Virus record (IMG/VR): IMGVR_UViG_3300044655_001510
DNA length: 20,000 nt
Strand: one strand, 5' to 3'
DNA from: an uncultured virus (IMG/VR IMGVR_UViG_3300044655_001510)
Taxonomy: Duplodnaviria; Heunggongvirae; Uroviricota; Caudoviricetes
Under the pieces are notes generated by a model, which did not search any database, was not told the origin of the DNA, and saw nothing but the letters and a program-made list of their open reading frames with translations. Shown here one piece after another: positions 2,204 to 20,000 of this stretch. A program made the position numbers and the translations under genes. The number at the start of each line of letters is the position of its first letter. The stretch's first letter is position 1.

Positions 2204-2400
2204 CATTCACAACAGGTATACAAGTCAACTACCCGACGACTAAAGATCGTCGGGCTTGCTTACTCCCATGACTAACTACTGGTGATTTAGTAGATCTCTC
2301 GATTTTAGAAGTCATTTTCAGTAAAGCCTCTGGGATTACTCCCACATCGCCTGTTGCGTGCGATGATAATTTGGTTCCATAATTGAGTCTTTGCCCTTCA
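2204..2400 (-). ncRNA. putative TnpB omega/reRNA (scaffold plus flank-derived guide); 5' boundary uncertain
   Basis: TnpB reRNAs are known to overlap the tnpB 3' end and right end and read into the flank; RE hairpin present. Confidence 0.55.
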
Positions 2401-3646
2401 TGGAGAATATTTGTGGCAGCATTCAAGTCTCTGTCATGGACTTCGCCACAAGAAGGGCATTCCCATTCACGAGTTGCTAAATCCAATGATTCGAGTTTAT
2501 GGCCACAGCAAGAACAGGTCTTGCTACTTGGATAAAACCTGCCTACTTGTTGAACAAGAACGCCAGCCCATTCCGCTTTATATTTGATCATTTCTGAAAG
2601 AGTAGACCAAGCGATTTCGTGGATTGCTCTGCTGAGTTTCCGGTTCTTAAGTAAATTACTGACTGCCAAATCTTCTAAATAAATCACGTCATTGGTAGCC
2701 ACTAGGTATTTACTAAGGATATGATAATACTCATTTCGCTGTCGCGTAATCTTGGAATACAAACGAGCCACCTGAATCCGTAGTTTCTCGTGGTTTTTGC
2801 TGCCTTTGGTAGTTCTTGCAAACTGCTTTTGTTTGCGTTTCAATAGCTGCTTGGTTTTCGCATGGTATAGCAACGCATCTGGTTTTAAAAATCGAAGACC
2901 ACTTGAAGTAATCATCAAATCTTTAATACCTAAATCAAAACCGACTTCTCGATTTTTGTAATCTTGGGTGGGTACATCTGTTTCTATTAGCACAGATGCA
3001 TAATACCGATCATCTGGATTTTTAGGAACGGTTATTGATTTAACAACTGCACCTTCAGGGATTGGTCTATGGATAACTGCTTTTACTTCTTTTAATTTTG
3101 GAAGTTTAATGGCATTATCTAGTACTTTGGTTCCTCGACCAGGGGTTCGATATGACTGACGTCCATGTTTTGATTTGAACCTTGGCTCTTCTACTCGTTT
3201 ACCTTTTCTGTTTCCAGCACGGGATTTGAACATGTTATCATATGCAGCTGCGAGGTCAGCTGATGCGCCTTGTAAGGCATTCATGTCTACTTCGCAAAGG
3301 AATTCCAGTTCTTTCTTTAACGGGGTAATGAGTTTATTGACCGCGAATCCATTCAGGTGTGGTTCACCTGCCAAATATCTTCGTTCATTTTCTGCTTTAA
3401 ATCGGTTATAGATCAGTCTCTTGCAACCAAATGTCTTCCCAATCAGAATTTGTTGCTCTGATGTCGGGTATATACGATATTTGATTGCAATTAATCTTTT
3501 CATGTCTGTATTTAGCATTTGACAAAGAACGACTTATGGATTAACGTATGGTTTTATTACTTGATGGGGAATTAAACATGAATAGCGAATTACCACACGC
3601 ATTCCTCCCGGCGACTAAAGATCACCGGGTTTCCTGCGCGAATCAG
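2224..3646 (-). mobile_element. IS200/IS605-family, tnpB-only (IS1341-like) element
   Basis: Matching subterminal hairpins CCCGACGA-CTAAAGA-TCGTCGGG (2232-2254) and CCCGGCGA-CTAAAGA-TCACCGGG (3607-3629); right end ...GGGTAGTTGAC; TTCAT flanks left end on - strand; no TSD, no tnpA. Confidence 0.85.
2229..3503 (-). CDS. tnpB: RNA-guided endonuclease TnpB
   Basis: N-terminal KYRIYPT..FG HTH; RuvC-I GFDLG, RuvC-II LEDL, zinc ribbon CSCCG..CPSCG, RuvC-III DRDLNAA; start 3503 (or 3518). Confidence 0.95.
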   Translation of the reverse strand: MKRLIAIKYRIYPTSEQQILIGKTFGCKRLIYNRFKAENERRYLAGEPHLNGFAVNKLITPLKKELEFLCEVDMNALQGASADLAAAYDNMFKSRAGNRKGKRVEEPRFKSKHGRQSYRTPGRGTKVLDNAIKLPKLKEVKAVIHRPIPEGAVVKSITVPKNPDDRYYASVLIETDVPTQDYKNREVGFDLGIKDLMITSSGLRFLKPDALLYHAKTKQLLKRKQKQFARTTKGSKNHEKLRIQVARLYSKITRQRNEYYHILSKYLVATNDVIYLEDLAVSNLLKNRKLSRAIHEIAWSTLSEMIKYKAEWAGVLVQQVGRFYPSSKTCSCCGHKLESLDLATREWECPSCGEVHDRDLNAATNILHEGQRLNYGTKLSSHATGDVGVIPEALLKMTSKIERSTKSPVVSHGSKQARRSLVVG

Positions 3647-6746: not shown

Positions 6747-6980
6747 ATGGCCATCGAAATAGCACCAGAAGAATATCACAAAGAAGAAATAACCTACTCG
6801 GAAGCATTGGTCTATTGCTTCTCCCTTGATATCGATGGTAAGATAGGATGGCGATTACCGACAGATCAAGAATACGTCTTTGAACTACCAGACCGGTACA
6901 ATGTACTTTTTCAAAATTGCAATTACTTTGATCATAATACAGCAACCTGCATACCAGTACGAGATGTAAAAGATGATTGA
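6747..6980 (+). CDS. mini-CLec/DUF1566-like small protein
   Basis: IEIAP..TYSEALVYCFSLDIDGKIGWRLPT..IPVRD. Confidence 0.85.
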   Translation: MAIEIAPEEYHKEEITYSEALVYCFSLDIDGKIGWRLPTDQEYVFELPDRYNVLFQNCNYFDHNTATCIPVRDVKDD

Positions 6981-7278
6981 AATAGCACCTAAAGAAACTG
7001 TAGCAAAACTTACGTGGGAAGATGCCAGACTCTACTGCTTCGCACTCAATGCAAACAACAAAACTGGATGGCGTTTACCTACCCTCGAAGAACTCTATTA
7101 CGTCAGAGAAAACTTAGATTATAAATTCGGTCATGATTACTACTGGTCGTCTGAGTCTACAGCAGATAGAGCTAATTGCGTTTTCATGGGAGGCTACAAG
7201 TATCCTAGTAAGGATTGTACAAGAAACTCACCAACCACTTTTACTTTCTACGTAAGAGCAGTCAGAGATATAACATGA
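6973..7278 (+). CDS. DUF1566/Lcl-like protein (longer form)
   Basis: TWEDARLYC..GWRLPTLEEL..YYWSS..YVRAVR, the canonical DUF1566 pattern. Confidence 0.85.
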   Translation: MIEIAPKETVAKLTWEDARLYCFALNANNKTGWRLPTLEELYYVRENLDYKFGHDYYWSSESTADRANCVFMGGYKYPSKDCTRNSPTTFTFYVRAVRDIT

Positions 7279-7571
7279 ACATCGAAATTGCACCAAAAGA
7301 AACTGAGGTCATAGCCAATTGGGAAGATGCCAAACTCTACTGCTTCGCACTTAATACAAATAACAAAACTGGTTGGCGTTTACCCACTAAAGAAGAACTT
7401 AATGAGATCTATGAATCAGGGAAAATTTTGGGGAATCATTGGTACTGGTCATCTTCTGATTCTAAGTACGATGCTAACTCTGTATGGGTTCAGGATTTTT
7501 CCAAAGGTTTCAAGTATTACGGTAATAAGACCAAAGACCTTAACCATGTTAGAGCAGTCAGAGATCTCTAA
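7275..7571 (+). CDS. DUF1566/Lcl-like protein (longer form)
   Basis: Start reassigned to 7275 (ATGA overlap); NWEDAKLYC..GWRLPTKEEL..WYWSS..VWVQDF..G..HVRAVR. Confidence 0.85.
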   Translation: MNIEIAPKETEVIANWEDAKLYCFALNTNNKTGWRLPTKEELNEIYESGKILGNHWYWSSSDSKYDANSVWVQDFSKGFKYYGNKTKDLNHVRAVRDL

Positions 7572-7775
7572 AAGATAGATACCAATGAACCAAGAAAAGT
7601 ATATCAATTAGCAGATAGTGAAGAATTAAAAGATATAAAGTTCGCTGAACTAAATTCGGTGCAAGAGTCTGTGCTGAAAGGATTGGAGTTAACTTTATAT
7701 CCCTTTATATCCCTATAGTGCAGTTTCATTGTAGGGAAATACTCCATGTAATGATATTGCGAGCCACGCTAGTGG

Positions 7776-7962
7776 CGAGCATAATAGGTCAAAATATATT
7801 CAAAAATACTTGAATTATACCTCTATTTTACCCACAATTACCCCATTGCGAGTGCCGCTAGGCACGAGCATAATAGGTCAAAATATATTCAAAAATACTT
7901 GAATTATACCTCTATTTTACCCACAATTACCCCATTGCGAGTGCCGCTAGGCACGAGCATAA
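7776..7962. repeat. 89-bp perfect tandem duplication containing GCTCG-hairpin repeats
   Basis: Identical units start at 7776 and 7865, partial third at 7954; hairpin repeats at 7759, 7848, 7937. Confidence 0.9.
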
Positions 7963-8210: not shown

Positions 8211-8498
8211 ATGAGTATAGAAGTATCACCTAGGGAGGCTGAAATGTTTGGAGATTGGTACGAGGCCACCCTTATTATAAAGAGTATGCGAGTAAATGAG
8301 CACGATAACTGGAGATTACCGACGATCACGGAACTTATCGACATATACAAGCAAGATAACGACTTTACGCTGTCTAATTACTGGAGTTCGGATGAAGCGG
8401 AGAACTTTGCGTTAGCACATAGTTTCAGTGACAATAGTACTAGTAGAATAGTTAAGACTAGGGTGGCGAGTATAAGGGCGGTGCGAGATGTCAACTGA
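8211..8498 (+). CDS. DUF1566/Lcl-like protein
   Basis: IEVSP..DWYEA..NWRLPTITEL..YWSS..IRAVRD. Confidence 0.85.
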   Translation: MSIEVSPREAEMFGDWYEATLIIKSMRVNEHDNWRLPTITELIDIYKQDNDFTLSNYWSSDEAENFALAHSFSDNSTSRIVKTRVASIRAVRDVN

Positions 8499-9078: not shown

Positions 9079-9786
9079 ATGAGTTTAGTTCAAGTATCAA
9101 AGCACACTATTACAGTAGAAACATACAACTGGAAAGCAGGAGTAAATGCTAGTAGAGAAGAAGCGGAGCAGTTCCTTAAAGACTTTACAATTGCACTGGG
9201 ACAAACCCATACTAAGTTACCGGTGGCTGAGTTAAAGGCTAGTGCTGAGGTAGTAGACCCAGTGGTACAACCTGATATTAAGAAGGTGGTAGCTAAGGCT
9301 GCACCATCTAGCAGTGACATCAAGTTGGCTAAACAAGCCCTAGGAGAACTTTATACCGGTACTAAGTATACCCCAGAAGAATCTGACTTGGCAGGACGTA
9401 TAGCTGCTGCTGGATTTACGGGTGAAGAGTTATCTATTGCTCGTAATGTAGTGACTATGTTATCTACGTATGGTAACAGTTTGAAACAAGATAAGTTACA
9501 ACGTGACTTGGGATTGAGACCCTTCCAGTTTGAGAAGTTATTCGAGGTATTCTTTGAGGGTACGTTTGCATCTACACAGCGTGAGATTACCTTGATGCGT
9601 GGTGCTAAGATGTTAGAAGAGGATACTATATCAAAGATTTCAGACATCGCAAAATCGTTACTTTATTCTAAAGCAGGTTTCAGATCGGCGTTTAATGCTA
9701 TGTTTGGGATCTCGCCATTGGAGTATCGTCAGAATGCGCAACGTGAGAAGGGTAAGAAAGCGTTGGCAGAGTTAGTACACGCATAA
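9079..9786 (+). CDS. AraC-family HTH domain protein
   Basis: C-terminal MRGAKML..ISDIAKSLLY..GFRSAFNAMFGISPLEYR matches the AraC double-HTH signature. Confidence 0.75.
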   Translation: MSLVQVSKHTITVETYNWKAGVNASREEAEQFLKDFTIALGQTHTKLPVAELKASAEVVDPVVQPDIKKVVAKAAPSSSDIKLAKQALGELYTGTKYTPEESDLAGRIAAAGFTGEELSIARNVVTMLSTYGNSLKQDKLQRDLGLRPFQFEKLFEVFFEGTFASTQREITLMRGAKMLEEDTISKISDIAKSLLYSKAGFRSAFNAMFGISPLEYRQNAQREKGKKALAELVHA

Positions 9787-9895
9787 GTTACGAGCACCGC
9801 TAGGTGCGAGTCAATGGCTCGTGCCTATCGGCACTCGCAAACAACCAACCAAACAAGCAATATTAAAGTTGACAAATTATCTTTTAGGTGATAGA

Positions 9896-10312
9896 ATGAC
9901 AGACATAGTAGAAAGTAAGACGTTTGAGCAGCGGATGAAGGAACGTATTAGGGATTCGATAGGTGATTTGATCTCTGATGAAGATTTGACTAAGATGGTG
10001 GATAGATCCTTGGAGGAGGTATTCTTTAAACCTAGGCCGAATCCCAAGTATGCCTCGTATTATAACGCTGGTGAGCCAGCGACGATACCACCACTGCTAC
10101 ATGAGTTAGTAAAGGAGGTAATGGAGGCTAATGTTCAAGCGGCTGTTCGGGAGTGGATTGGCAGCAATCAGGAAGAGGTTAATGCGACTATCCAAAAGGT
10201 AATACAGGAAGGAATTGGTGCTGCGGTACTCGGTGCAATGAACAGTATGTTTAATTATCAGTTATCTAACTTACAGAATAACATTTCGCAACAGATTAGT
10301 AACTATAGGTAG
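9896..10312 (+). CDS. hypothetical helical phage protein
   Basis: Start reassigned to MTDIVES (AGGTG RBS); upstream extension lies in repeat/promoter DNA. Confidence 0.75.
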   Translation: MTDIVESKTFEQRMKERIRDSIGDLISDEDLTKMVDRSLEEVFFKPRPNPKYASYYNAGEPATIPPLLHELVKEVMEANVQAAVREWIGSNQEEVNATIQKVIQEGIGAAVLGAMNSMFNYQLSNLQNNISQQISNYR

Positions 10313-10316
10313 CAGT

Positions 10317-10463
10317 ATGGAAGAGTCAACAGATAAGGAACCGGTTGCATGGATGGCTAGGTATATTGACAAGGATGGCAATGAGGCGGTGTATACCACG
10401 ACTGTGTATGAGTTAGCAGTAGAGAACGATGCGAATGGCCAACCCATTCCATTATATATGTAA
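10317..10463 (+). CDS. 48-aa phage protein with EPVAW..PLY motif
   Basis: Manually translated MEESTDKEPVAWMARY...PIPLYM*; fills the gap between neighbours. Confidence 0.65.
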   Translation: MEESTDKEPVAWMARYIDKDGNEAVYTTTVYELAVENDANGQPIPLYM

Positions 10464-10482
10464 TTATCTTTTAGGTGAAATA

Positions 10483-11076
10483 ATGATTAAAGTAGAAGCA
10501 GTTAAAACATTTAGTTGGGCAGCGGCAGAAGGGTTGACTGAAGAAGAGGCAAGTGCGTTTCATGCGGAGTTGGGTTTAGCACTAGGGAAAAGTTTACCGG
10601 TGGCTGAGTTGCGTAATGGGTTGATGTCTGGTAATAGTTTATTAGTGAATACTGCGTTGCAGACTTTATATACTAACATGAGATACAAGCCAACTGCTGA
10701 GGATTTAACTGAGAGAGTTGCAGCTGCAGGTTATCAGATGAGTGACTTGGCATTGATTCAGAAGTTAGTAGCTAAGATTGAGGCTGGTGTGGATAAGGAA
10801 GGGGTATACTTGGCAGCTGGTTTGCCGGTTCATAAGGTAGATGCTTTGTTTAGTGCCTTCTTTGATAACACGTTTGCTATGGTAAGTAGAGATGTGCGTA
10901 TGACATTGGCTAAGTCGTTGTTGGATAGTGGTCGATTTGTCTCTATAGATGAAATTGCAAGTAAGTGTGGTTATGCCAATGCGACTAGTTTCAGAATTTG
11001 CTATAAGAACTGGTTTGGTGAGTATCCACAGCTTACAAGAGTTAAAGCCGTTAAGCAGTTGTTTGTGTTTGACTAA
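10483..11076 (+). CDS. AraC-family HTH domain protein (paralog of 9079-9786)
   Basis: RMTLAKSLL..SIDEIASKCGYANATSFRICYKNWFGEYP; shared N-terminal EEA..F..ALG..LPVAEL. Confidence 0.8.
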   Translation: MIKVEAVKTFSWAAAEGLTEEEASAFHAELGLALGKSLPVAELRNGLMSGNSLLVNTALQTLYTNMRYKPTAEDLTERVAAAGYQMSDLALIQKLVAKIEAGVDKEGVYLAAGLPVHKVDALFSAFFDNTFAMVSRDVRMTLAKSLLDSGRFVSIDEIASKCGYANATSFRICYKNWFGEYPQLTRVKAVKQLFVFD

Positions 11077-11122
11077 GGCTCGCACCTAGCGGTGCTCGCA
11101 ATCTAAAAGTTTTACAACAGTG

Positions 11123-11162
11123 GAGGTGCATCACTTTGGGAGAGGTGATGTGCCTTTTCTTT
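11123..11162 (+). terminator. putative intrinsic terminator
   Basis: AGGTGCATCACTT..AGGTGATGTGCCT stem then TTTCTTT. Confidence 0.6.
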
Positions 11163-11172
11163 GTATAGGGTA

Positions 11173-11200
11173 TTGACAATTATCTTTTAGTTGTTATACT
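11173..11200 (+). promoter_or_regulatory. sigma70-type promoter with 12-mer in spacer
   Basis: TTGACA-ATTATCTTTTAG-ttgt-TATACT. Confidence 0.7.
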
Positions 11201-11287
11201 TTATCAATGGACACGCCAATGGCTCACTGAGCGGGGTGATGTTTAGTTAAAGCCGGTTGGCTTAATTTTAACGAAGGGGTTTATAAT

Positions 11288-11464: not shown

Positions 11465-11696
11465 AGAGTGAGCTATTGGGTAGTTATCTTTTAGGCCTGA
11501 ACTTTAGAGTGTGAGCTATTGGGTAATGATCTTTTGAGTATTGCTTTTGTGTTGAACCGCGATTGGTTCGCATGATTGTATTTAGTGTTTGTTTTGAATT
11601 TTTGGGATTATGGCTCGCACCTAGCGGTGCTCGCGAGCGTTAGCGAGCCTATATACCCGCTGTAGCGTTATGTACCCATACGTATAGAGAGGATTT

Positions 11697-11942
11697 ATGA
11701 ATAAGTATATTGTATTAGTTTGTGTTTCGGTGGTGTTATTGTTTGGAGTATTGGGTTTATCTATACAGGAAGTCAATACAAGATCAGCTGATGATTGGAT
11801 AGATTCTAGGATAGAGACTGGTCAGGATCGTTTTGGTAACTGTTATCTGTATGTTAAGCCATGGCAGTGGATTCAACTGGTTGAGTGTGATCGTATAGGT
11901 AAGGCAGTTAAGCCAGTTGATAAGTTTGGTAATAGCTTATAG
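11697..11942 (+). CDS. small membrane-anchored protein
   Basis: GAGGA RBS; hydrophobic N-terminal segment. Confidence 0.7.
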   Translation: MNKYIVLVCVSVVLLFGVLGLSIQEVNTRSADDWIDSRIETGQDRFGNCYLYVKPWQWIQLVECDRIGKAVKPVDKFGNSL

Positions 11943-11984
11943 TATACCCGCTGTGCATGTGGGTGTAGGTACGTGTATATAGAG

Positions 11985-12121
11985 TTGACAAGTTAAATAT
12001 ACTTTGATATACTAATATCTTCTTAGTAGAACAAGAATAATGTTGTAGAGTTTATCCAATCAAGCTGTCACTTGGTTGGTTTATTGAATAAGAGGCAGAC
12101 TTTGCCCAGTCTGCCTTTTTT
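11985..12121 (+). ncRNA. candidate ~100-nt small RNA with own promoter and terminator
   Basis: TTGACA-N17-TATACT (11985-12013); hairpin CCAATCAAG..CTTGGTTGG; terminator AGGCAGACT..AGTCTGCCT-TTTTT; no ORF. Confidence 0.5.
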
Positions 12122-12234
12122 ATTGCCTGTTGGAAATACTACATAGTGTGTCATCACAACCTAAAAGATAATGATTGACACTACAGACATATCACATTAA
12201 TATTTGGCATTTTTAACCTTTGGAGATAAAGCAG

Positions 12235-12735
12235 ATGAAAAACAACTCACCAACTGTTTCTTGGAAAGATCTTGACAGTTTATCATTTCATAAAGATAAC
12301 AAACTGTTTGACATTGTAATGGTTACTAACAGAAACAGAAGTAACATTAAGTCGTATATTAAGTCGAAATGCGACCTAGTAGGTGGATGTTATTATTGGT
12401 TTCGTGGAGATGGAGATATTCGCGGTGCTGTTCAAGTGTTCATTGATAAACGAAAACCACTCTCTCAGGGTAAGCCATATGAAGTAATCAAAAATGGTAA
12501 ACGTTGCAGAACATTAAAAACTGATCTTATTGACGTTATGTCAGTTATGTCTGCAAATGATTTAACCATTGCTGATTTAACTGGTATAACGTTTAACAAG
12601 AATGGTAAACAACTAAACCTAGTATGTATGGGTAACGTTCCAATTGTTGGAGTGGAGACGTTGGATGATTTAGTAACCAAACTTTACGACAATGAATATG
12701 CGGTTGATATGGATAGTCTGGTGAGTACCCAGTAG
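12235..12735 (+). CDS. hypothetical phage protein
   Basis: GGAG RBS before ATG 12235; promoter TTGACA(12175)-N17-TAATAT. Confidence 0.75.
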   Translation: MKNNSPTVSWKDLDSLSFHKDNKLFDIVMVTNRNRSNIKSYIKSKCDLVGGCYYWFRGDGDIRGAVQVFIDKRKPLSQGKPYEVIKNGKRCRTLKTDLIDVMSVMSANDLTIADLTGITFNKNGKQLNLVCMGNVPIVGVETLDDLVTKLYDNEYAVDMDSLVSTQ

Positions 12736-13224
12736 GAACCTGGTTCGTTATTGCGAGTGCCGGTAGGCACGAGCTTGTAACATAACTGTCATAATCAGGT
12801 ATATATAGAATGCGGCCTGCAGAGGAAAAAAAAGGCACACTAAGGGAGAAGAGATTTGTTGATCTTCTTCCTGATGCCTTTTGGTGGCTTCCTTGGATTC
12901 TTCTTCCTGGTCTTGCTCTTCTCCTGATTCTCCTCAGAATCCCTCGAGTAATTGCACAAGAAAATCGATCGAGCAATTGGTGATATCACTAAAAGATAAT
13001 TGAACTATTGATGAAGTTATCTTTTAGATATATTAGTTGACTGATTGGTTATGGATATGATAGTATTAATTCGACTAAAAGATAATGGAGGTCCTGTACT
13101 AAATACATGAGTTAAAAGTTCGATTGATCATAATCATTTTTCTTAAACCCCTAGCTAGGTTGGCCAACCGAATTAGGGGTGGTTTGATCAGAGAACTGGT
13201 AACACAAACCATAGGAAGAATAAG

Positions 13225-15006
13225 ATGATCGAAATCCACGAGTCTGTGTACGAAGCAATGTATGCGGAGTTTTCTAAAAAATCAGTAGATAAAGCACTTG
13301 AGAAGTATTCTAAGGTCTTGTCTAACTTGATACATATATCAATTACAAACGATTACGCATGTACTGCGTATAGTCAGTATCAGATCCCGTTACAATCATT
13401 GGTGACCAAAGGTGGTAAGATCACTGATTCCAAGGGGAAACAGATACGAGTTCATTCCTGGCTAAAAGATAATAAGCCAATCATAAAAGTTCTAAACATG
13501 GGTAATAGTTTACAGAAGGTAAAATCTACTATTTCCCTAATTGACAACCGATGTACTTACACAGATCTATTTGACATGAGCCTAGAAGAATACGAAGAAA
13601 AACAACTTAACATCCAGACTGATGATTTCCTTGATAATGAAATGTATGATGATTTATTCTACAGGGAATATCCAGAGGTTCTATATGCAAGACAAGGATT
13701 GATGTCAGTTGATGATTGCCTAGCGATGTTTCACCCAATTGAAGTTAATGCTACAACGTTAACTAATTACTTGAATTGGCTTATCTATGACAGTACTAAG
13801 TTGGATGAGAACCAACGCAAGAGTTATATACGTAAGGCTAAGATGATATTGGCCCTAGCACATAAAGGAGATGGGTATTGGTTCCAGCGGAAGAAGCAGA
13901 GTGTATTTGGCCGGTTGTATTATGTTGGGTTATCGATGCATAACATTCCAAGGGAAATGCGTAAGAATGTATTGGGTGATTCATGGCAGTATGATATCAG
14001 TTCTTCATCCATTGCCTGGAAGTATAGTTATGCAGCTGCGTATAACCGAGAAGTTAAACCAGAAAGGTTCCAGTATACTAATCATTACCTGACAGATAAG
14101 GAAGACTTTATACAGGACTGTTTGAAGCACGTGTTCTTATGCCGTACTTACAAAGACAAGGAGGGTAATGTTCACCGGTATGATCCTGAGTGGTGTCGTA
14201 AAAAGATCAAGGCTATGATGAATGCCATATCTTTTGGTGCGAAGGTATTCGGGATTGTCATACCCAACCCAAAAGATCCAGATAATCCATTGGTTAATTC
14301 GTTAGGTGATATCCTAAAAGATAATGAAATCCGTGATGCATTTTTGAATCATGATTTGATTAGTGGATTTATCTATGAGCATATGGAGTTAGCTGAGTTT
14401 ATCCTAGAGAAGAATAAGAGTATATTGGCTCCGTTAACCTGTACTAAAACAGATACTGGGCGTCGTAGTAAGGCCAAAGAGATGGCTTACTTGTACCAGC
14501 ATGCTGAGACTGAGATCATGACTAGAGCTACTTCGATTGCGGAAGCAATGGGGCATGAGATACTAATCGGTGTGCATGACGCGTTCATTGTGCGAAATAA
14601 GATTGCATTTGATGATCTGCAGGAGATTGAGCTGTGCATCCAATCAGAGTTTGGTATGCCATATTGGAAGTTAGTGGGTGAGAAACTTACTGGGTATACT
14701 GCGATGGTTGGTCCTAGAGTTGAGGATAATGACCGTAAGGTTGCCATTCATAGATTAGTCATACGTGAGCAGGAATATGAATTGTCACGTGGTAATACTA
14801 CTCGGATCATTGAATCGGATATTGATGATTCATTAATTGAACCAGAGATGCGAGCCATTAAGGAGGAACGCGAACGCTATGCTAAACGCCATCGTGACTC
14901 TTGGGGTACAGATTACTTTGATGGTTCTGATCATAGATACGATGGTGTTCAGTATGGGGATGAAGAGTACTTGTATGAATATGACGACGAGGATGACGAA
15001 GACTAG
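13225..15006 (+). CDS. divergent family-A polymerase-fold protein (Pol A / T7-RNAP-like)
   Basis: FGRLY..HNIP..R; QYDISSS (motif A Asp); RKKIKAMMNAISFG (R-x3-K-x7-aromatic-G, motif B); YQHAE; GVHDAF (motif C); acidic tail. Confidence 0.7.
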   Translation: MIEIHESVYEAMYAEFSKKSVDKALEKYSKVLSNLIHISITNDYACTAYSQYQIPLQSLVTKGGKITDSKGKQIRVHSWLKDNKPIIKVLNMGNSLQKVKSTISLIDNRCTYTDLFDMSLEEYEEKQLNIQTDDFLDNEMYDDLFYREYPEVLYARQGLMSVDDCLAMFHPIEVNATTLTNYLNWLIYDSTKLDENQRKSYIRKAKMILALAHKGDGYWFQRKKQSVFGRLYYVGLSMHNIPREMRKNVLGDSWQYDISSSSIAWKYSYAAAYNREVKPERFQYTNHYLTDKEDFIQDCLKHVFLCRTYKDKEGNVHRYDPEWCRKKIKAMMNAISFGAKVFGIVIPNPKDPDNPLVNSLGDILKDNEIRDAFLNHDLISGFIYEHMELAEFILEKNKSILAPLTCTKTDTGRRSKAKEMAYLYQHAETEIMTRATSIAEAMGHEILIGVHDAFIVRNKIAFDDLQEIELCIQSEFGMPYWKLVGEKLTGYTAMVGPRVEDNDRKVAIHRLVIREQEYELSRGNTTRIIESDIDDSLIEPEMRAIKEERERYAKRHRDSWGTDYFDGSDHRYDGVQYGDEEYLYEYDDEDDED

Positions 15007-15056
15007 GCTCGCTCCTATCGGAGCTCGCTATACCTATCTACCCGCTGTACAGGTAC

Positions 15057-15084
15057 TTGACATCCGTACATATACATGTATAAT
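15057..15084 (+). promoter_or_regulatory. sigma70-type promoter
   Basis: TTGACA-N16-TATAAT. Confidence 0.7.
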
Positions 15085-15115
15085 ACAAACTTTCTAACTA
15101 ACCGATTAAACCCTT

Positions 15116-15448
15116 ATGAAAAAGTTATTAGCAGTAATCGCTTTATTAGCATCGTTAAACGCCAATGCATATACCTTGGATGATATCAAGACTCAGATGT
15201 TAAACGCTGGGTTCTTGGTAGACTACGACGCAATGAAACTCAATCCACATATCATAGTAGCTTGGAAGCGTGGGATGAGCAGATATCAATGTGATCTCTA
15301 TACCAACTCTATGATTAAAGAGATGAACTATCCACATGTAACTCAGGAGAATACCGCTGATGGTAGAATCGAAATGATAGTGAATAATCCTGGACTTGTT
15401 CTTGGTTGTGCTGCCAATCAATCGTTTGTATGGCTGATCAAATCCTAG
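15116..15448 (+). CDS. exported protein with Sec signal peptide
   Basis: MKKLLAVIALLASLNANA, AxA cleavage site. Confidence 0.75.
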   Translation: MKKLLAVIALLASLNANAYTLDDIKTQMLNAGFLVDYDAMKLNPHIIVAWKRGMSRYQCDLYTNSMIKEMNYPHVTQENTADGRIEMIVNNPGLVLGCAANQSFVWLIKS

Positions 15449-15520
15449 TTACCCGCTGTGCGTGTTAGTAGCTCGTGCTAATATACACGTATAATTGTTC
15501 AATTTTCAACTACTTTCTTG

Positions 15521-15689
15521 TAAGTCATTGAATTATAAAGACATTATCTTTTAGACCCTTAAAATAATAATGATATAAATCAATGACTTACAAACAGTAC
15601 CTTTAAACAGTATCTTACCCTGGTTACCCTACAGGGTCAATAATCTACAATACACAAAAATCACACCGAACGCTTGTAAGTTATTGATA
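15521..15689. promoter_or_regulatory. cluster of three IHF-like sites
   Basis: 15578 AATCAATGACTTA (+), 15677-15689 TATCAATAACTTA (-), 15521-15533 ATTCAATGACTTA (-, one mismatch). Confidence 0.6.
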
Positions 15690-15768
15690 TAACTATCTAT
15701 AATTTCTACTTTACCCGCTGAAGAAGGTATGGTAATATACACGCATTCACACATATAGGAGAGTACAC

Positions 15769-15987
15769 ATGTTAAAAGTTGATGATGGTATCTACCAGGC
15801 CCGGATTTTCTATGCTGGTAAGAATGCAGTAGAGATTCATGTATACAGGAAGCATTGGAAGTTCTGGTGGCAGTTTGTTTGGCAGGCCACCTGGGATGCT
15901 GAACAGTTAGATTTCAAGACAATCCGTGCTTGTGCACTGGAAGCCATTGAGTGTGCACGTATGGTTGAGTCAGGCAACCCGCTGTGA
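15769..15987 (+). CDS. small Trp-rich hypothetical protein
   Basis: AGGAG RBS; 72 aa. Confidence 0.7.
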   Translation: MLKVDDGIYQARIFYAGKNAVEIHVYRKHWKFWWQFVWQATWDAEQLDFKTIRACALEAIECARMVESGNPL

Positions 15988-16028
15988 GCATACGTACATA
16001 TAGAACAATTATCTTTTAGGAGAAGAAA

Positions 16029-16334
16029 ATGTCATTAGAGTCAGCAATAATAACCGCACTATGGATCGGTGGGTTCGTATTCATTGTTACGTTAATCCAC
16101 GTAGGTAAACTTAAGTTCATTGAGCTATGGAGGGATAGTCCGTGGAATACACTTGGAATATGTGCGATCCTTGGAATTCAGGTAGGAGTCATATTAATGC
16201 AGGTATGGTATTTCGTACCCGCTGCATACATACCCGATCCTGCGATGATAGAGCGGATCAAAAGGGTTGAATGCCATTCACCACGCTGTGAAGAGATAGT
16301 CAATGATCTTTTAGCAAGAGTTTCAGCTAAATAA
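16029..16334 (+). CDS. two-TM membrane protein
   Basis: AGGAG RBS; two hydrophobic segments. Confidence 0.75.
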   Translation: MSLESAIITALWIGGFVFIVTLIHVGKLKFIELWRDSPWNTLGICAILGIQVGVILMQVWYFVPAAYIPDPAMIERIKRVECHSPRCEEIVNDLLARVSAK

Positions 16335-18511: not shown

Positions 18512-18576
18512 AGATTGACATGGTGGGTATTTTCTTTTAGAATGTACCCACCTTAACAGAACTACGGAGAATATCC

Positions 18577-18840
18577 ATGTACACCATGACAGAAACCACC
18601 TTTGCTGATTTATTACCTTACTTGGAATTGTTTGACGAGGAGGACAATGGATTCTTCCAATACGAACCAGCACGTCATATCCAACTCTATGTAAAAGAGT
18701 TTGGTGATGTGGTAGAAGTAGGAACAGTAGAAGTCTTAGGTGATAGCGTGACATTCAGAAACATTGGTGGTGGTAAATGCGGTACTGCCAAAGTCAATAG
18801 TATTGAATGCGCTGTAATGAAACAAAACAGACTAATCTAA
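18577..18840 (+). CDS. hypothetical protein (paralog of 19555-19815)
   Basis: MYTMTETTFADLLPYL..YVKE.G.VVEV..VEV.GD.V.F..IECAV.KQ. Confidence 0.8.
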   Translation: MYTMTETTFADLLPYLELFDEEDNGFFQYEPARHIQLYVKEFGDVVEVGTVEVLGDSVTFRNIGGGKCGTAKVNSIECAVMKQNRLI

Positions 18841-18915
18841 AAACAAATAGTTGACAATGGGTACATTCGCCTTTATAATGTACCCACCTTAACAAAGCAC
18901 TACGGAGTAAACAAT

Positions 18916-19173
18916 ATGAACAATTCGATTAAACTTGTGTTAGCAGAACTACAGGAAATGCCAGAAGGAGAAGAAGTATTTAAAAAGTTTTCTTTTTACA
19001 CTGGTGTTGAAAAGATTGCGGCAATATTAAAATTAGAAGATTATGGTTATGAAACAACCGTAGCAGATTTGTTAGTAGATATTATTCGTTACTGTGATTG
19101 TCATAATATCAACTTTAAAGAAGAAGTCGCTGATGCACTAGAAGATGCTGAGGCAGAACTAACACACGGGTAA
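18916..19173 (+). CDS. hypothetical protein, apparent chimera
   Basis: Own promoter cassette; halves match 17183 and 17430 products. Confidence 0.75.
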   Translation: MNNSIKLVLAELQEMPEGEEVFKKFSFYTGVEKIAAILKLEDYGYETTVADLLVDIIRYCDCHNINFKEEVADALEDAEAELTHG

Positions 19174-19244
19174 AAAAAGTTGACACTGGGTGCATTTTAA
19201 ACTATAATGTACCCACTTTAACAAAGCACTACGGAGTAAAGCCA

Positions 19245-19481
19245 ATGAGTAGTTTATACTGGAACGGCATTCAAAAACGGTCAGACCTTTATAGCATGGT
19301 ACAGTCATACAGACGTGACATTAAAGCTATGTTTGACATCTATGACACTGATTACTTAAAGTCACTGACAGAGAGTGAAGTCATTGCTAGGGACGAGATA
19401 GTAGCAGATATAACTGCCTTAATCGCAAAGATTGAAACCTTACGCGCGACATATCCTAAATTAGAACACGATTTAACCTAA
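19245..19481 (+). CDS. hypothetical protein
   Basis: Own promoter cassette with GGAG RBS. Confidence 0.75.
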   Translation: MSSLYWNGIQKRSDLYSMVQSYRRDIKAMFDIYDTDYLKSLTESEVIARDEIVADITALIAKIETLRATYPKLEHDLT

Positions 19482-19554
19482 AAACAAATAGTTGACATTG
19501 AGTACATTCGCCTTTATAATATACCCACCTTAACAAGCACTACGGAGAATATCC

Positions 19555-19815
19555 ATGTACACAATGACAAAAACCACCTTAGCTGAAATCATGCCATACT
19601 TGGTAGAATACTCGGATTATGCGGATTCAATCGATTACGAAGTTGCTAAAGACTATCAAATATATGTTAAAGATTGTGGCGAAGTGGTCGAGGTTGCTTT
19701 AGTTGAAGTAGCTGGTGACACTGTACTATTCAAAGGCACTGATGGCGAGTTTGGTGAAGAAATTTCAGCAGATGAAATAGAATGTGCGGTAATAAAACAA
19801 ACCAGAATAATCTAA
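19555..19815 (+). CDS. hypothetical protein (paralog of 18577-18840)
   Basis: Same leader (GGAGAATATCCATG) and similar protein. Confidence 0.8.
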   Translation: MYTMTKTTLAEIMPYLVEYSDYADSIDYEVAKDYQIYVKDCGEVVEVALVEVAGDTVLFKGTDGEFGEEISADEIECAVIKQTRII

Positions 19816-19890
19816 AAACAAATAGTTGACATTGGGTACATTCGCCTTTATAATGTACCCACCTTAACAAAGCACTACGGAGTAAAAGAT

Positions 19891-20000
19891 ATGAACATTG
19901 AAATCGCACCAAAAGAAACAGAGATTCAAGCCAACTGGTATGATGCCAGCCAATACTGCTTTTCGCTTAATATCAACGAGAAAACAGGATGGCGTTTACC
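19891..20000 (+). CDS. DUF1566/Lcl-like paralog, 5' part
   Basis: MNIEIAPKETEIQANWYDASQYCFSLNINEKTGWRL, closest to the 7275 copy. Confidence 0.85.
   Translation, partial: MNIEIAPKETEIQANWYDASQYCFSLNINEKTGWRL

Follow-up and report, generated by a model that had tools for sequence, protein, structure and literature searches.

The gene at positions 13225..15006 of the 20,000-nucleotide stretch of uncultured viral DNA analysed here (the window) encodes a minimal family-A polymerase-like protein. We consider it moderately probable that this protein can start replication by itself, as a self-contained primase-polymerase akin to TV-Pol and CcPol, and that it serves as an accessory enzyme in a T4-like jumbo phage. 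Among the roles suggested in an earlier note on this DNA, that of a primase or initiator is judged the most likely. The reading frame is a real gene under purifying selection, with a dN/dS of 0.19 against the 95%-identical copy in locus L001 (566 of 593 residues identical). The gene and the parts of its product are laid out as follows:

13225..15006 (+), gene of the minimal family-A polymerase-like protein, an ORF of 593 aa with an ATG start, stop codon included
13225..13671 (+), alpha/beta N-terminal domain (residues 1-149), putatively DNA-binding and weakly winged-helix-like; model pLDDT 82.6
13672..14694 (+), polymerase core (residues ~150-490), seen in secondary structure, VIA, Foldseek and conservation in 118 sequences
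14713..14901 (+), C-terminal helical extension (residues 497-559, with helices 497-521 and 535-559), past the point where the Pol I palm ends
14902..15003 (+), disordered acidic tail (residues 560-593); pLDDT < 50 for residues 555-593

In the AlphaFold model of the 593-aa protein (pLDDT 80.7), residues ~165-490 match family-A DNA polymerases, and on this predicted structure the right-hand fold of the Pol A/T7 RNA polymerase (RNAP) superfamily that had been proposed for the protein is confirmed. A VIA comparison with Klenow aligns 278 residues, within model residues 164-490, at Z 15.3 and an rmsd of 4.0, and across both VIA runs the Klenow match lies at Z 15.0-15.3 over about 278 residues (rmsd 4.0-4.2). 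When VIA is run without bias on 48,161 chains, ranks 1-8 are occupied by family-A DNA polymerases with Z scores of 15.0 to 10.3. The top matches listed by Foldseek are all family-A DNA polymerases (best E 1.8e-7; 161 matches at E <= 0.001), as are 50 of the 50 entries listed by VIA for the Foldseek-matched chains. Palm, thumb and fingers are all found, and Klenow, at Z 15.0 in the unbiased run, scores above T7 RNAP (Z 9.4), the yeast mitochondrial RNAP (Z 9.6) and a 404-aa chain of N4 RNAPII (Z 7.6), the T7-type single-subunit RNA polymerases as a whole reaching Z 7.1-9.6.

The core begins with a two-helix thumb (residues 176-188 and 195-214), near the start of the thumb-palm alignments with Pol I at residues 164-167, and the two helices directly precede a beta-hairpin (strands 218-225 and 231-234) that carries R230. 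The palm contains D257, on strand 253-259, and H451-D452, with D452 on strand 446-456; the fingers contain K329-x7-F337-G338. Structural alignments with family-A polymerases stop at model residue 490. The N-terminal domain has invariant residues at Y28, W79, L80, G93 and S101, and in phage G003 it is a separate 132-aa ORF ahead of the polymerase core. Its fold search returned no significant match (best Z 4.6 in VIA, best E 0.66 in Foldseek), so that DNA binding by this domain is a guess; the weak matches are mostly to winged-helix DNA binders and plasmid Rep initiators. Neither an exonuclease signature in Pfam nor an exonuclease-like fold match for the N-terminal domain was found, in line with the earlier note, and the acidic tail that it described is present. 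The tail ends ...EYDDEDDED and is confined to the close phage clade, 7 of the 38 sequences in the alignment.

The active-site motifs named in that note, GRLY..HNIP..R, the Asp of motif A, the Phe of motif B and the HDAF of motif C, could all be located. F228-G229-R230-L-Y ... H239-N240-I241-P242 ... R246 is aligned by hhalign to residues 665-681 of E. coli Pol I (ATGRLSSTDPNLQNIPV), in a match to this single sequence that is not significant alone (E 0.32). Motif A is Y256-D257, and motif B is K329-x7-F337-G338, where Phe stands in place of Pol I Y766 (low-confidence alignment). Motif C, H451-D452-A453-F454, aligns both to HDSF of T7 RNAP and to HDE of Pol I, and reads HDA(F/I/V) across the family. 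The family profile gives a non-significant E of 0.051 against a 31-sequence Pol I profile and 0.21 against the T7 RNAP sequence. PF00476 (DNA_pol_A) has no match at E <= 10 in the 593-aa protein and none in 38 family members, and in five genomes carrying a relative it matches the host Pol I only. As none of these sequence matches to Pol I reaches significance, the residue map is a low-confidence collinear alignment combined with the structural match.

R230, which aligns to the template-contacting R668 of Pol I, is kept in 118 of 118 relatives. D257 and K329 (each 116/118; the latter, the Lys of the O-helix, aligned at low confidence to Pol I K758), F337 (117/118) and G338 (118/118) are conserved as well, and H451 and D452 are present in all 113 ungapped sequences. 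The fingers have Asp at D291 in 108 and at D294 in 98 of the 118. With its catalytic residues conserved in this way the protein is predicted to be an active polymerase, and a dead enzyme was rejected on the same ground. The mixed signatures reported earlier are borne out at the positions of sugar selection, where the Glu gate and the third carboxylate have given way to small residues. At the position aligned to the E710 sugar gate of Pol I (low-confidence alignment) the 118 sequences have A in 99, S in 11, T in 7 and G in 1, an alternative D+5 register giving V 106, S 5, A 5 and E 2, and the position of the third carboxylate, E883, is Ala in 111 of 113 (low-confidence alignment). Lacking both of these Pol I residues, the core is probably ribonucleotide-tolerant. 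At position 325, where RxxxK has its Arg, only 8 of the 118 relatives keep that residue, with P in 41, L in 17 and T in 13 among the rest; the window's own protein does carry R325.

TV-Pols, the transposon-virus polymerases, are minimal family-A enzymes that lack an exonuclease; they were described in 2008 and predicted to be primase-polymerases (Iyer, Abhiman and Aravind 2008, PMC2579912). Like them, the present family has a thumb of two antiparallel helices, an invariant Arg on a beta-hairpin, an RRM-like palm with a pair of catalytic Asp residues, a conserved Asp and the RxxxK Lys in the fingers, and no nuclease domain. It is likewise carried by phages and by integrase-bearing mobile elements (a tyrosine integrase occurs in 49 of 80 bacterial loci), and shares an extra N-terminal globular domain that is sometimes a separate adjacent gene, as in G003. 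It differs from TV-Pol in that the Arg of RxxxK, which is defining in TV-Pol and Pol A, is rare, in that its N-terminal domain is alpha/beta and winged-helix-like whereas TV-PolN is predicted to be all-helical, and in the absence of a D5-helicase fusion; no fused form of 1055-3010 aa was found, D5-helicase fusions included, although this is weak evidence. Structural neighbours in the Atlas do include D5_N/DUF5906 fusion proteins (TM 0.40-0.42). Against Ma-LMM01, a phage said to carry a TV-Pol, the family profile found nothing at E <= 1, and the 70 ORFs of >= 250 aa in that phage, searched with hmmsearch and hhalign, gave at best E 0.54 and P 0.14; TV-Pol membership by sequence is therefore unproven. 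A Pol I profile matches two adjacent Ma-LMM01 ORFs (E 1e-25 and 2.7e-13).

CcPol-MP of SCCmec is reported to be a family-A primase-polymerase, and PolA-SSB primases to occur in elements of Bacillota (Rice 2023, PMC10061031). As described there, CcPol alone only extends primers and requires its partner MP for priming, and the PolA-SSB polymerases are truncated Pol I derivatives that keep parts of the exonuclease domain. The window's protein resembles CcPol as a family-A catalytic domain on a mobile element, in the place of a primase, and a DUF6641 gene lies 3' of the bacterial homologue in 61 of 80 loci much as MP follows CcPol in that account. It differs from the same account in having no helicase in the operon, no DUF6641 homologue in the window and no exonuclease remnant in the family. 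The word undescribed, used in the earlier note of an enzyme-plus-repeat module, is thus too strong for the enzyme: the TV-Pol kind has been known since 2008 (PMC2579912), and CcPol with MP is reported as a primase-polymerase (PMC10061031).

With Klenow and Pol I the protein shares counterparts of R668, D705, K758, Y766-G767 and H881-D882, all in the low-confidence alignment. Unlike them it has no PF00476 match and neither a 3'-5' nor a 5' nuclease domain; Ala or Ser replaces E710, Phe replaces Y766 and Ala replaces E883, R754 is missing, and the core comprises ~340 residues where the Klenow polymerase domain has roughly 410. T7-type RNA polymerases have the same superfamily fold, HD followed by a small residue in motif C and a two-carboxylate active site, but their structural scores are far below those of the DNA polymerases, T7 RNAP has 883 aa against 593, and no promoter-binding elements are recognisable in the window's protein.

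The family is widespread and is a 'hypothetical protein' missed by Pfam, PHROGs, NCBIfam and PADLOC. The 593-aa protein has no Pfam domain match at E <= 10 and a single PHROGs match at E 0.24; Pfam gave only scattered chance matches on 38 family members, NCBIfam yielded no name for 10, and PADLOC had no match on 5 members and 6 neighbours, by which a component of a defence system was rejected. Searches of the PDB with phmmer and with the profile returned no sequence match that names the protein. A megablast of the 20-kb window against phages found no match, and tblastn against phages found only two records, both of one Desulfovibrio phage, at 24% identity. The enzyme is accordingly unannotated, but not the orphan that it was taken for: it has 37 homologues, and the profile search recovers 1088 representative clusters at 50% identity (E <= 0.001). 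The metagenome scans for loci gave none in one case and 9 in another.

The carriers of the family are ~29-kb phages and integrase-bearing islands of freshwater Burkholderiales, in addition to the window's T4-like jumbo phage and other phages of its clade. The 80 bacterial loci contain a short tyrosine integrase in 49, DUF6876 in 44 and a second integrase in 22, the DUF6641 gene (163 aa) is immediately downstream of the homologue, and several homologue copies occur per genome. The Atlas yielded nothing further about DUF6641. HMMs of eight conserved bacterial neighbour clusters, including DUF6641, the short integrase and DUF6876, found none of these in the window or the phage loci, and in the window neither a helicase nor an SSB-like partner adjoins the gene and no integrase is linked to it. 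The complete phages G002 (28.7 kb) and G003 (29.0 kb) each carry a homologue and have no PF00476 or DnaB_C match; apart from an endonuclease VII, whose gene is 3' of the homologue in G002 (one locus only), no other replication family was found among their scanned ORFs. Because no primase or helicase of a recognised family was seen there, something must start synthesis in G002 and G003. A syntenic 327-kb relative of the window is T4-like and encodes a Gp23 capsid protein, a family-B polymerase and a DnaB-like helicase, which bears out the accessory status in a T4-like phage suggested in the earlier note; it has a single copy of the polymerase gene. A T4-like jumbo phage already has a full replisome, which counts against the proposed role there.

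The gene is flanked by hairpins in opposite orientation, as had been observed, and by further boxes and promoters:

12753..12775 (-), dispersed hairpin, upstream copy bordering a synteny block; RNA fold -11.4 kcal/mol, z -2.7
12989 (-), 13017 (+) and 13075 (-), TTATCTTTTAG boxes flanking the candidate promoter
13037..13066 (+), weak candidate promoter of the polymerase gene, TTGACT-N18-TAGTAT with TG; 9/12 matches
15006..15028 (+), hairpin that overlaps the stop codon and opens a PeSL-like cassette; fold -11.6 kcal/mol
15040..15047 (+), ACCCGCTG box, after this hairpin and ahead of the next promoter; position kept in L001, L126 and L127
15057..15084 (+), perfect sigma-70-type promoter of the next gene, TTGACA-N16-TATAAT; 12/12 matches

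The hairpin is present in 10 copies in the window against 0.00 expected (200 shuffles), and in the 327-kb relative in 39 copies, 19 forward and 20 reverse, spread over at least four separate regions. L001 and L126 have the stop-codon copy in the corresponding position, their stems showing compensatory changes. Synteny with L001 breaks at 11105 and 12750, adjoining the hairpins at 11077 and 12753, and the block shared with L001 around the gene begins at 12750. ACCCGCTG occurs seven times in the window, always on the + strand (0.26 expected), as one box per small-gene cassette with no tight iteron cluster, and flanks the gene in all four phage loci of the clade, even where the proteins are only 46-48% identical. 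All 13 TACCCGCTG boxes of the 327-kb relative have the same strand and fall within 76.8-105.6 kb, where the polymerase gene also lies. The four loci of distant homologues that were checked contain no hairpin or box motif save one opposite-strand ACCCGCTG in L003. Near-consensus sigma-70 promoters number 15 in the 20 kb, all on the + strand, so that the surroundings of the gene appear to rely on the host RNA polymerase; sites of 9/12 quality are no commoner than in shuffles.

The hairpins are ordinary regulatory cassettes, dispersed over the genomes of such phages, and are PeSL-like. PeSL (promoter-early stem-loop) cassettes are known from T4-like phages (PMC4122927); in them a stem-loop precedes an early promoter of the sigma-70 type, and the pair lies between small genes of the hyperplastic region. 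Likewise, the window's hairpin at 15006-15028 is followed by the perfect promoter at 15057-15084, and the cassettes edge blocks exchanged between related phages. The window's hairpin differs from PeSL in occurring in both orientations and in having no T-run, and was not scored as an intrinsic terminator; its cassette also adds the ACCCGCTG box, which is not known to be described for PeSL. This comparison concerns the repeats and not the polymerase. The notion of an enzyme-plus-repeat module fares poorly, since the hairpin is genome-wide, with 39 copies to one copy of the gene, and is tied to early promoters and synteny breaks; co-occurrence with the repeats does not extend to the four loci of distant homologues that were checked.

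It is proposed that the protein is an active minimal family-A polymerase without exonuclease, in which the N-terminal domain would place the enzyme on DNA and the ~340-residue, probably ribonucleotide-tolerant core would lay a primer or a short first strand. The product would then be handed over to the main replisome, that of the host in the small elements and the T4-type one in the window's phage, and the acidic tail may contact the latter. The gene would form an expression unit of its own within an early, hyperplastic region. An enzyme that depends on primers and does no priming, whether in repair, gap-filling, strand displacement or lesion bypass or as sole replicase of small elements, is a less likely but real contender. 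The nearest folds are those of Pol I, Pol theta and Pol nu, which act in gap filling and bypass, and no counterpart of the MP that CcPol needs in order to prime (PMC10061031) was seen in the window; on the other hand, the lack of any recognised primase or helicase in G002 and G003 speaks for priming, and an additional N-terminal domain together with a lost sugar gate would suit an initiator more than a repair enzyme.

That the protein is a miniature single-subunit RNA polymerase, which transcribes a subset of phage or element genes, seems very unlikely. The HDA(F/I/V) of motif C, reminiscent of the T7 RNAP HDSF, the small residue at the sugar-gate position and the Z scores of T7, mitochondrial and N4 RNAPs would suit such an enzyme, but the DNA polymerases score ~5 Z units higher, the 15 near-consensus sigma-70 promoters point to the host RNA polymerase and the bacterial homologues travel with integrases, the setting of replication modules. 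We would give scant credence to an enzyme that acts specifically on the neighbouring repeats and starts synthesis at the hairpins or ACCCGCTG boxes. The conservation of the stop-codon hairpin in three lineages with compensatory stem changes, the flanking of the gene by ACCCGCTG in every clade phage locus and the single orientation of the TACCCGCTG boxes around it argue for such specificity; against it stand the genome-wide spread of the hairpin, its pairing with promoters and synteny breaks as in the PeSL cassettes (PMC4122927), the lack of a tight iteron cluster, the near absence of the motifs from the four distant-homologue loci that were checked and the two AraC-type regulators encoded near the gene, which are simpler candidates for box binding. 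The particular version in which the N-terminal domain reads strand-specific ACCCGCTG boxes and the core starts DNA synthesis there is equally improbable, and is based on the confinement of the boxes in the 327-kb phage to a ~29-kb region around the gene, with 13 of 13 on one strand, and on their constant position beside the gene in phages with an enzyme of only 46-48% identity. If true, a T4-like jumbo phage would have another initiation system, sequence-specific and based on a family-A primase-polymerase, in place of the usual primase or recombination-dependent starts.

As for the primase-polymerase reading favoured here, family-A polymerases acting as primases are, to our knowledge, the third known way of starting DNA chains, with CcPol-MP as the sole tested example. 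Members of the present family occur in small integrative islands of bacteria from fresh water, in ~29-kb phages with apparently no other replication gene and in a T4-like jumbo phage, and a widespread 'hypothetical protein' would gain a name. With its catalytic residues kept and its sugar gate lost, the ~340-residue core provides a compact test case for the divergence of DNA and RNA synthesis in the superfamily, and may be a source of a small, permissive polymerase.

The minimal polymerase is encoded by a gene with a palindrome in its leader:

13225..15006, + strand: polymerase-like ORF with an ATG start, 593 aa
13147-13180: 34-nt palindrome within the polymerase gene's 5' leader (fold -16.1 kcal/mol, z only -1.3)

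The protein shares 95% identity with its counterpart on a related 327-kb viral contig (locus L001), from which it differs at 27/593 residues with a dN/dS of 0.19; the ORF is a genuine gene on which purifying selection acts. Searches of Pfam (at E <= 10), PHROGs, NCBIfam and PADLOC, as well as phmmer and profile searches of PDB sequences, left the protein unnamed. An earlier note described the enzyme as an orphan, which does not hold, as a word-indexed search recovered 37 relatives (0/37 with a Pfam domain) and a search of 1.84 billion proteins with the profile A1 built from them reached 1088 representative clusters at E <= 0.001, of which 408 have E <= 1e-30.

The AlphaFold2 model built on the A1 alignment has a mean pLDDT of 80.7 and a pTM of 0.71. 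The top Foldseek matches listed from the PDB are all family-A DNA polymerases (best E 1.8e-7; 161 matches at E <= 0.001). When the Foldseek-matched chains were realigned with VIA-align, model residues 164-490 superimposed onto Klenow with a Z of 15.3 (278 residues aligned, rmsd 4.0), and 50/50 entries among the matches listed are family-A DNA polymerases. An unbiased VIA search of 48,161 chains gave the following scores:

Klenow: Z 15.0
Pol theta: Z 14.1
Pol nu: Z 13.2
apicoplast Pol: Z 12.3
T7 DNA polymerase: Z 11.7
yeast mitochondrial RNAP: Z 9.6
T7 RNAP: Z 9.4
N4 RNAPII: Z 7.6

Taken together, the Foldseek and VIA scores confirm for the modelled protein a right-hand fold that is nearer to DNA polymerases than to RNA polymerases, and the comparison with Klenow and T7 RNAP bears out the Pol A/T7-RNAP fold that had been proposed from the sequence.

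The family profile does not match E. coli Pol I significantly (E 0.32, the sole aligned stretch placing FGR230...NIP on TGR668...NIP), nor T7 RNAP (E 0.21, with VHDAF aligned on IHDSF), and a 118-sequence family profile compared with a 31-sequence Pol I profile likewise gives no significant match (E 0.051, around motif C). Residues were mapped onto Pol I through a relaxed alignment with a single collinear path, which is of low confidence and agrees with the structural ranges. D257 falls two residues ahead of Pol I D705 in this low-confidence map, an offset attributed to alignment error, and is assigned the role of motif A Asp on account of its position at the end of palm strand 253-259 in the model.

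Low-confidence residue map to E. coli Pol I, with conservation among 118 relatives unless stated otherwise:
R230: Pol I R668; 118
D257: 116
262 (D+5 register): V 106, S 5, A 5, E 2
I263-A264-W265-K266: Pol I I709-E710-L711-R712; at 264 (aligned to the E710 sugar gate) A 99, S 11, T 7, G 1
325 (Arg of RxxxK): Arg only 8/118
K329: Pol I K758; 116
N333: Pol I F762
F337-G338: Pol I Y766-G767; F337 117, G338 118
H451-D452-A453: Pol I H881-D882-E883; H451 and D452 113/113 ungapped, 453 (aligned to E883) Ala 111/113

The mixed DNA- and RNA-polymerase signatures noticed earlier are genuine: an intact catalytic core is combined with small residues at the positions by which Pol I rejects ribonucleotides and with two carboxylates, as in T7 RNAP. 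This combination of residues suggests that rNTPs are tolerated, and does not indicate the product.

Residues 1-165 were modelled separately on a 33-sequence alignment (pLDDT 82.6). The fold of this N-terminal domain has no significant match by VIA (best Z 4.6) or Foldseek (best E 0.66), and no exonuclease-like fold is found among the matches of either search. Most of the weak matches are to winged-helix DNA-binding proteins and to initiators of plasmid or chromosomal replication, so that a winged-helix or initiator-like domain is a lead only. The complete phage G003 encodes the N-domain as its own 132-aa ORF (locus L003, 9586-9984), directly before the polymerase-core ORF (9992-11203), and the N-terminal domain of TV-Pols, the minimal family-A polymerases of transposons and viruses, behaves in the same way, being either fused or a separate gene (PMC2579912). 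In the model, residues 497-559 extend as two long helices past where the Pol I palm ends, and residues 560-593 form a disordered acidic tail, which occurs only in the close phage clade (7/38 aligned sequences).

Like TV-Pol, the family has no nuclease, is carried on mobile elements with integrases, and has a two-helix thumb, an Arg in the hairpin, both Asp, and the Asp and Lys of the fingers; the Arg of RxxxK is rare in it. The family profile has no match in Ma-LMM01, a phage said to carry TV-Pol. The minimal polymerase is predicted to work like TV-Pol, and membership of that family as first delimited is not claimed. Ma-LMM01 itself (NC_008562) contains two adjacent ORFs at 157,273-159,683 (-) that match the Pol I profile (E 1e-25 and 2.7e-13; 98.7% and 97.2% by hhalign), and the pair resembles a family-A polymerase that has been split or interrupted.

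The window and L001 share synteny, with 88-96% nucleotide identity. Genes for a Gp23-type capsid (E 3e-96), a split family-B polymerase and a DnaB-like helicase lie on the 327-kb contig, which carries a single copy of the minimal polymerase gene and yielded no PF00476 polymerase. As this relative has its own family-B polymerase and helicase, the minimal polymerase is accessory in this T4-like jumbo phage lineage, as had been proposed. At 255-261 kb the PF00136 match of the family-B polymerase falls into two parts separated by about 2.4 kb, one in an open frame of 723 aa and the other in a different frame of 330 aa, and the gene may be split or interrupted.

Homologues are also carried by two small complete phages, G002 (28,678 bp with terminal repeats) and G003 (29,043 bp), which otherwise encode packaging, head and tail genes plus endonuclease VII, with no PF00476 or DnaB_C match and no other replication family among the ORFs scanned. 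Bacterial genomes gave 105 relatives, with 80 loci retained; most come from Limnohabitans, Polynucleobacter and other freshwater Burkholderiales, and a genome can hold several copies: one MAG has four loci, three of them on one 444-kb contig. Neighbours were clustered and then named, and their counts are lower bounds since many of the 80 loci end at contig edges:

DUF6641 gene, 163 aa (phrog_31551), immediately downstream: at least 61/80 loci, median gap 118 bp (example: L047, 11683-12174)
short tyrosine integrase, 197 aa, about 2 kb upstream: at least 49/80 loci
DUF6876, about 2 kb upstream: at least 44/80 loci
second integrase: at least 22/80 loci

None of DUF6641, the integrases or DUF6876 is found in the window or the phage loci, and the polymerase gene is the only part common to bacterial and phage loci. 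PF00476 matches in five relative-carrying bacterial genomes are host Pol I only. By analogy with MP of CcPol-MP, the SCCmec primase-polymerase, DUF6641 could be an accessory subunit.

The window contains 10 copies of the hairpin (GGCTCG-stem-TANC-stem-CTCGC), lying between 7759 and 15028 on either strand (shuffles 0), and the 327-kb relative 39 (19 forward, 20 reverse; control 0), spread over at least four regions. Manual reading of the 36 exact copies of this relative found six stem variants, all fully complementary, and at the stop codon of the polymerase gene the hairpin persists in the window, L001 and the phage locus L126, each time with a different stem that is complementary within itself. 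The hairpin is a selected structure, yet a genome-wide one. Folding energies are about -10 to -11.6 kcal/mol (z -1.5 to -2.7), and scoring as a terminator was negative, with no T-run. The stop codon is followed by the hairpin, a ACCCGCTG box and a perfect TTGACA-N16-TATAAT promoter, one of 15 near-consensus promoters that the window carries, each of them + strand. The two breaks in synteny with L001, at 11105 and 12750, adjoin hairpins at 11077 and 12753; the same promoter and synteny-break behaviour is described for the promoter-early stem-loop (PeSL) cassettes of T4-like phages (PMC4122927, PMC2839356). At 7759-7959 three hairpins 89 bp apart with near-identical flanks form a short tandem array of the cassette.

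Less commonplace than the hairpin, ACCCGCTG occurs seven times in the window (11655-16224; 7/7 on the + strand), usually inside T(A/T)ACCCGCTGT, and its places around the gene are kept in the phage loci L126 and L127, whose enzymes are 48% and 46% identical. In the 327-kb relative, TACCCGCTG lies 13/13 on one strand within 29 kb (76.8-105.6 kb). Since there is one ACCCGCTG per small-gene cassette at a varying distance to promoters, a regulatory site is the simpler reading. The 11-mer TTATCTTTTAG has 30 sites at <=1 mismatch over the whole window and both strands, against 0.9 expected, is also present in L001, L126 and L127, and often lies inside promoter spacers (e.g. promoters starting at 9869, 11173 and 17738); a phage regulator probably has its operator here. 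Two paralogous proteins are candidates for binding TTATCTTTTAG or ACCCGCTG:

12989(-), 13017(+), 13075(-), 9877, 11180, 17753: example TTATCTTTTAG sites
9079-9786 and 10429-11076, + strand: paralogues with a C-terminal AraC-type HTH_18 domain

Elsewhere in the window, the sole long minus-strand ORF (2229-3518) is a TnpB/IS605 OrfB-type gene with HTH_OrfB_IS605, OrfB_IS605 and Cas12f1-like TNB domains. Three small paralogues with an Lcl C-terminal domain (PF07603) lie at 6973-7278, 7215-7571 and 8211-8498 (+), and four repeat units of about 330 bp at 18515-19900 each contain an ORF of about 85 aa and a near-identical consensus promoter (...aaaaacaaatagTTGACA...TATAAT).

The earlier note tied the enzyme to a repeat module on which it would act. 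With 39 hairpins to one gene copy in the 327-kb relative that tie is not supported, and in the four distant-homologue loci checked (L002, L003, L129, L131) the three motifs are absent, except for one opposite-strand ACCCGCTG in L003; a repeat-directed enzyme is the least likely of the readings. A mini RNA polymerase, to which the putative rNTP tolerance would be suited, is very improbable for a fold that lies closer to Klenow than to T7 RNAP. That the protein is merely a primer-dependent polymerase would accord with its family-A core, and is considered unlikely. Favoured instead, with moderate confidence, is a self-contained starter of DNA synthesis, because the minimal polymerase has no nuclease, carries a small extra domain and retains its catalytic residues, and its gene moves alone between small phages and integrative islands and in the former stands where a replication module would be expected. 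TV-Pols are predicted primase-polymerases (PMC2579912), which fits the protein studied here, as does the reported behaviour of CcPol-MP (PMC10061031). As such a starter, the minimal polymerase would itself lay down the primer and then hand over to the main replisome, a process in which the acidic tail may also have a role.
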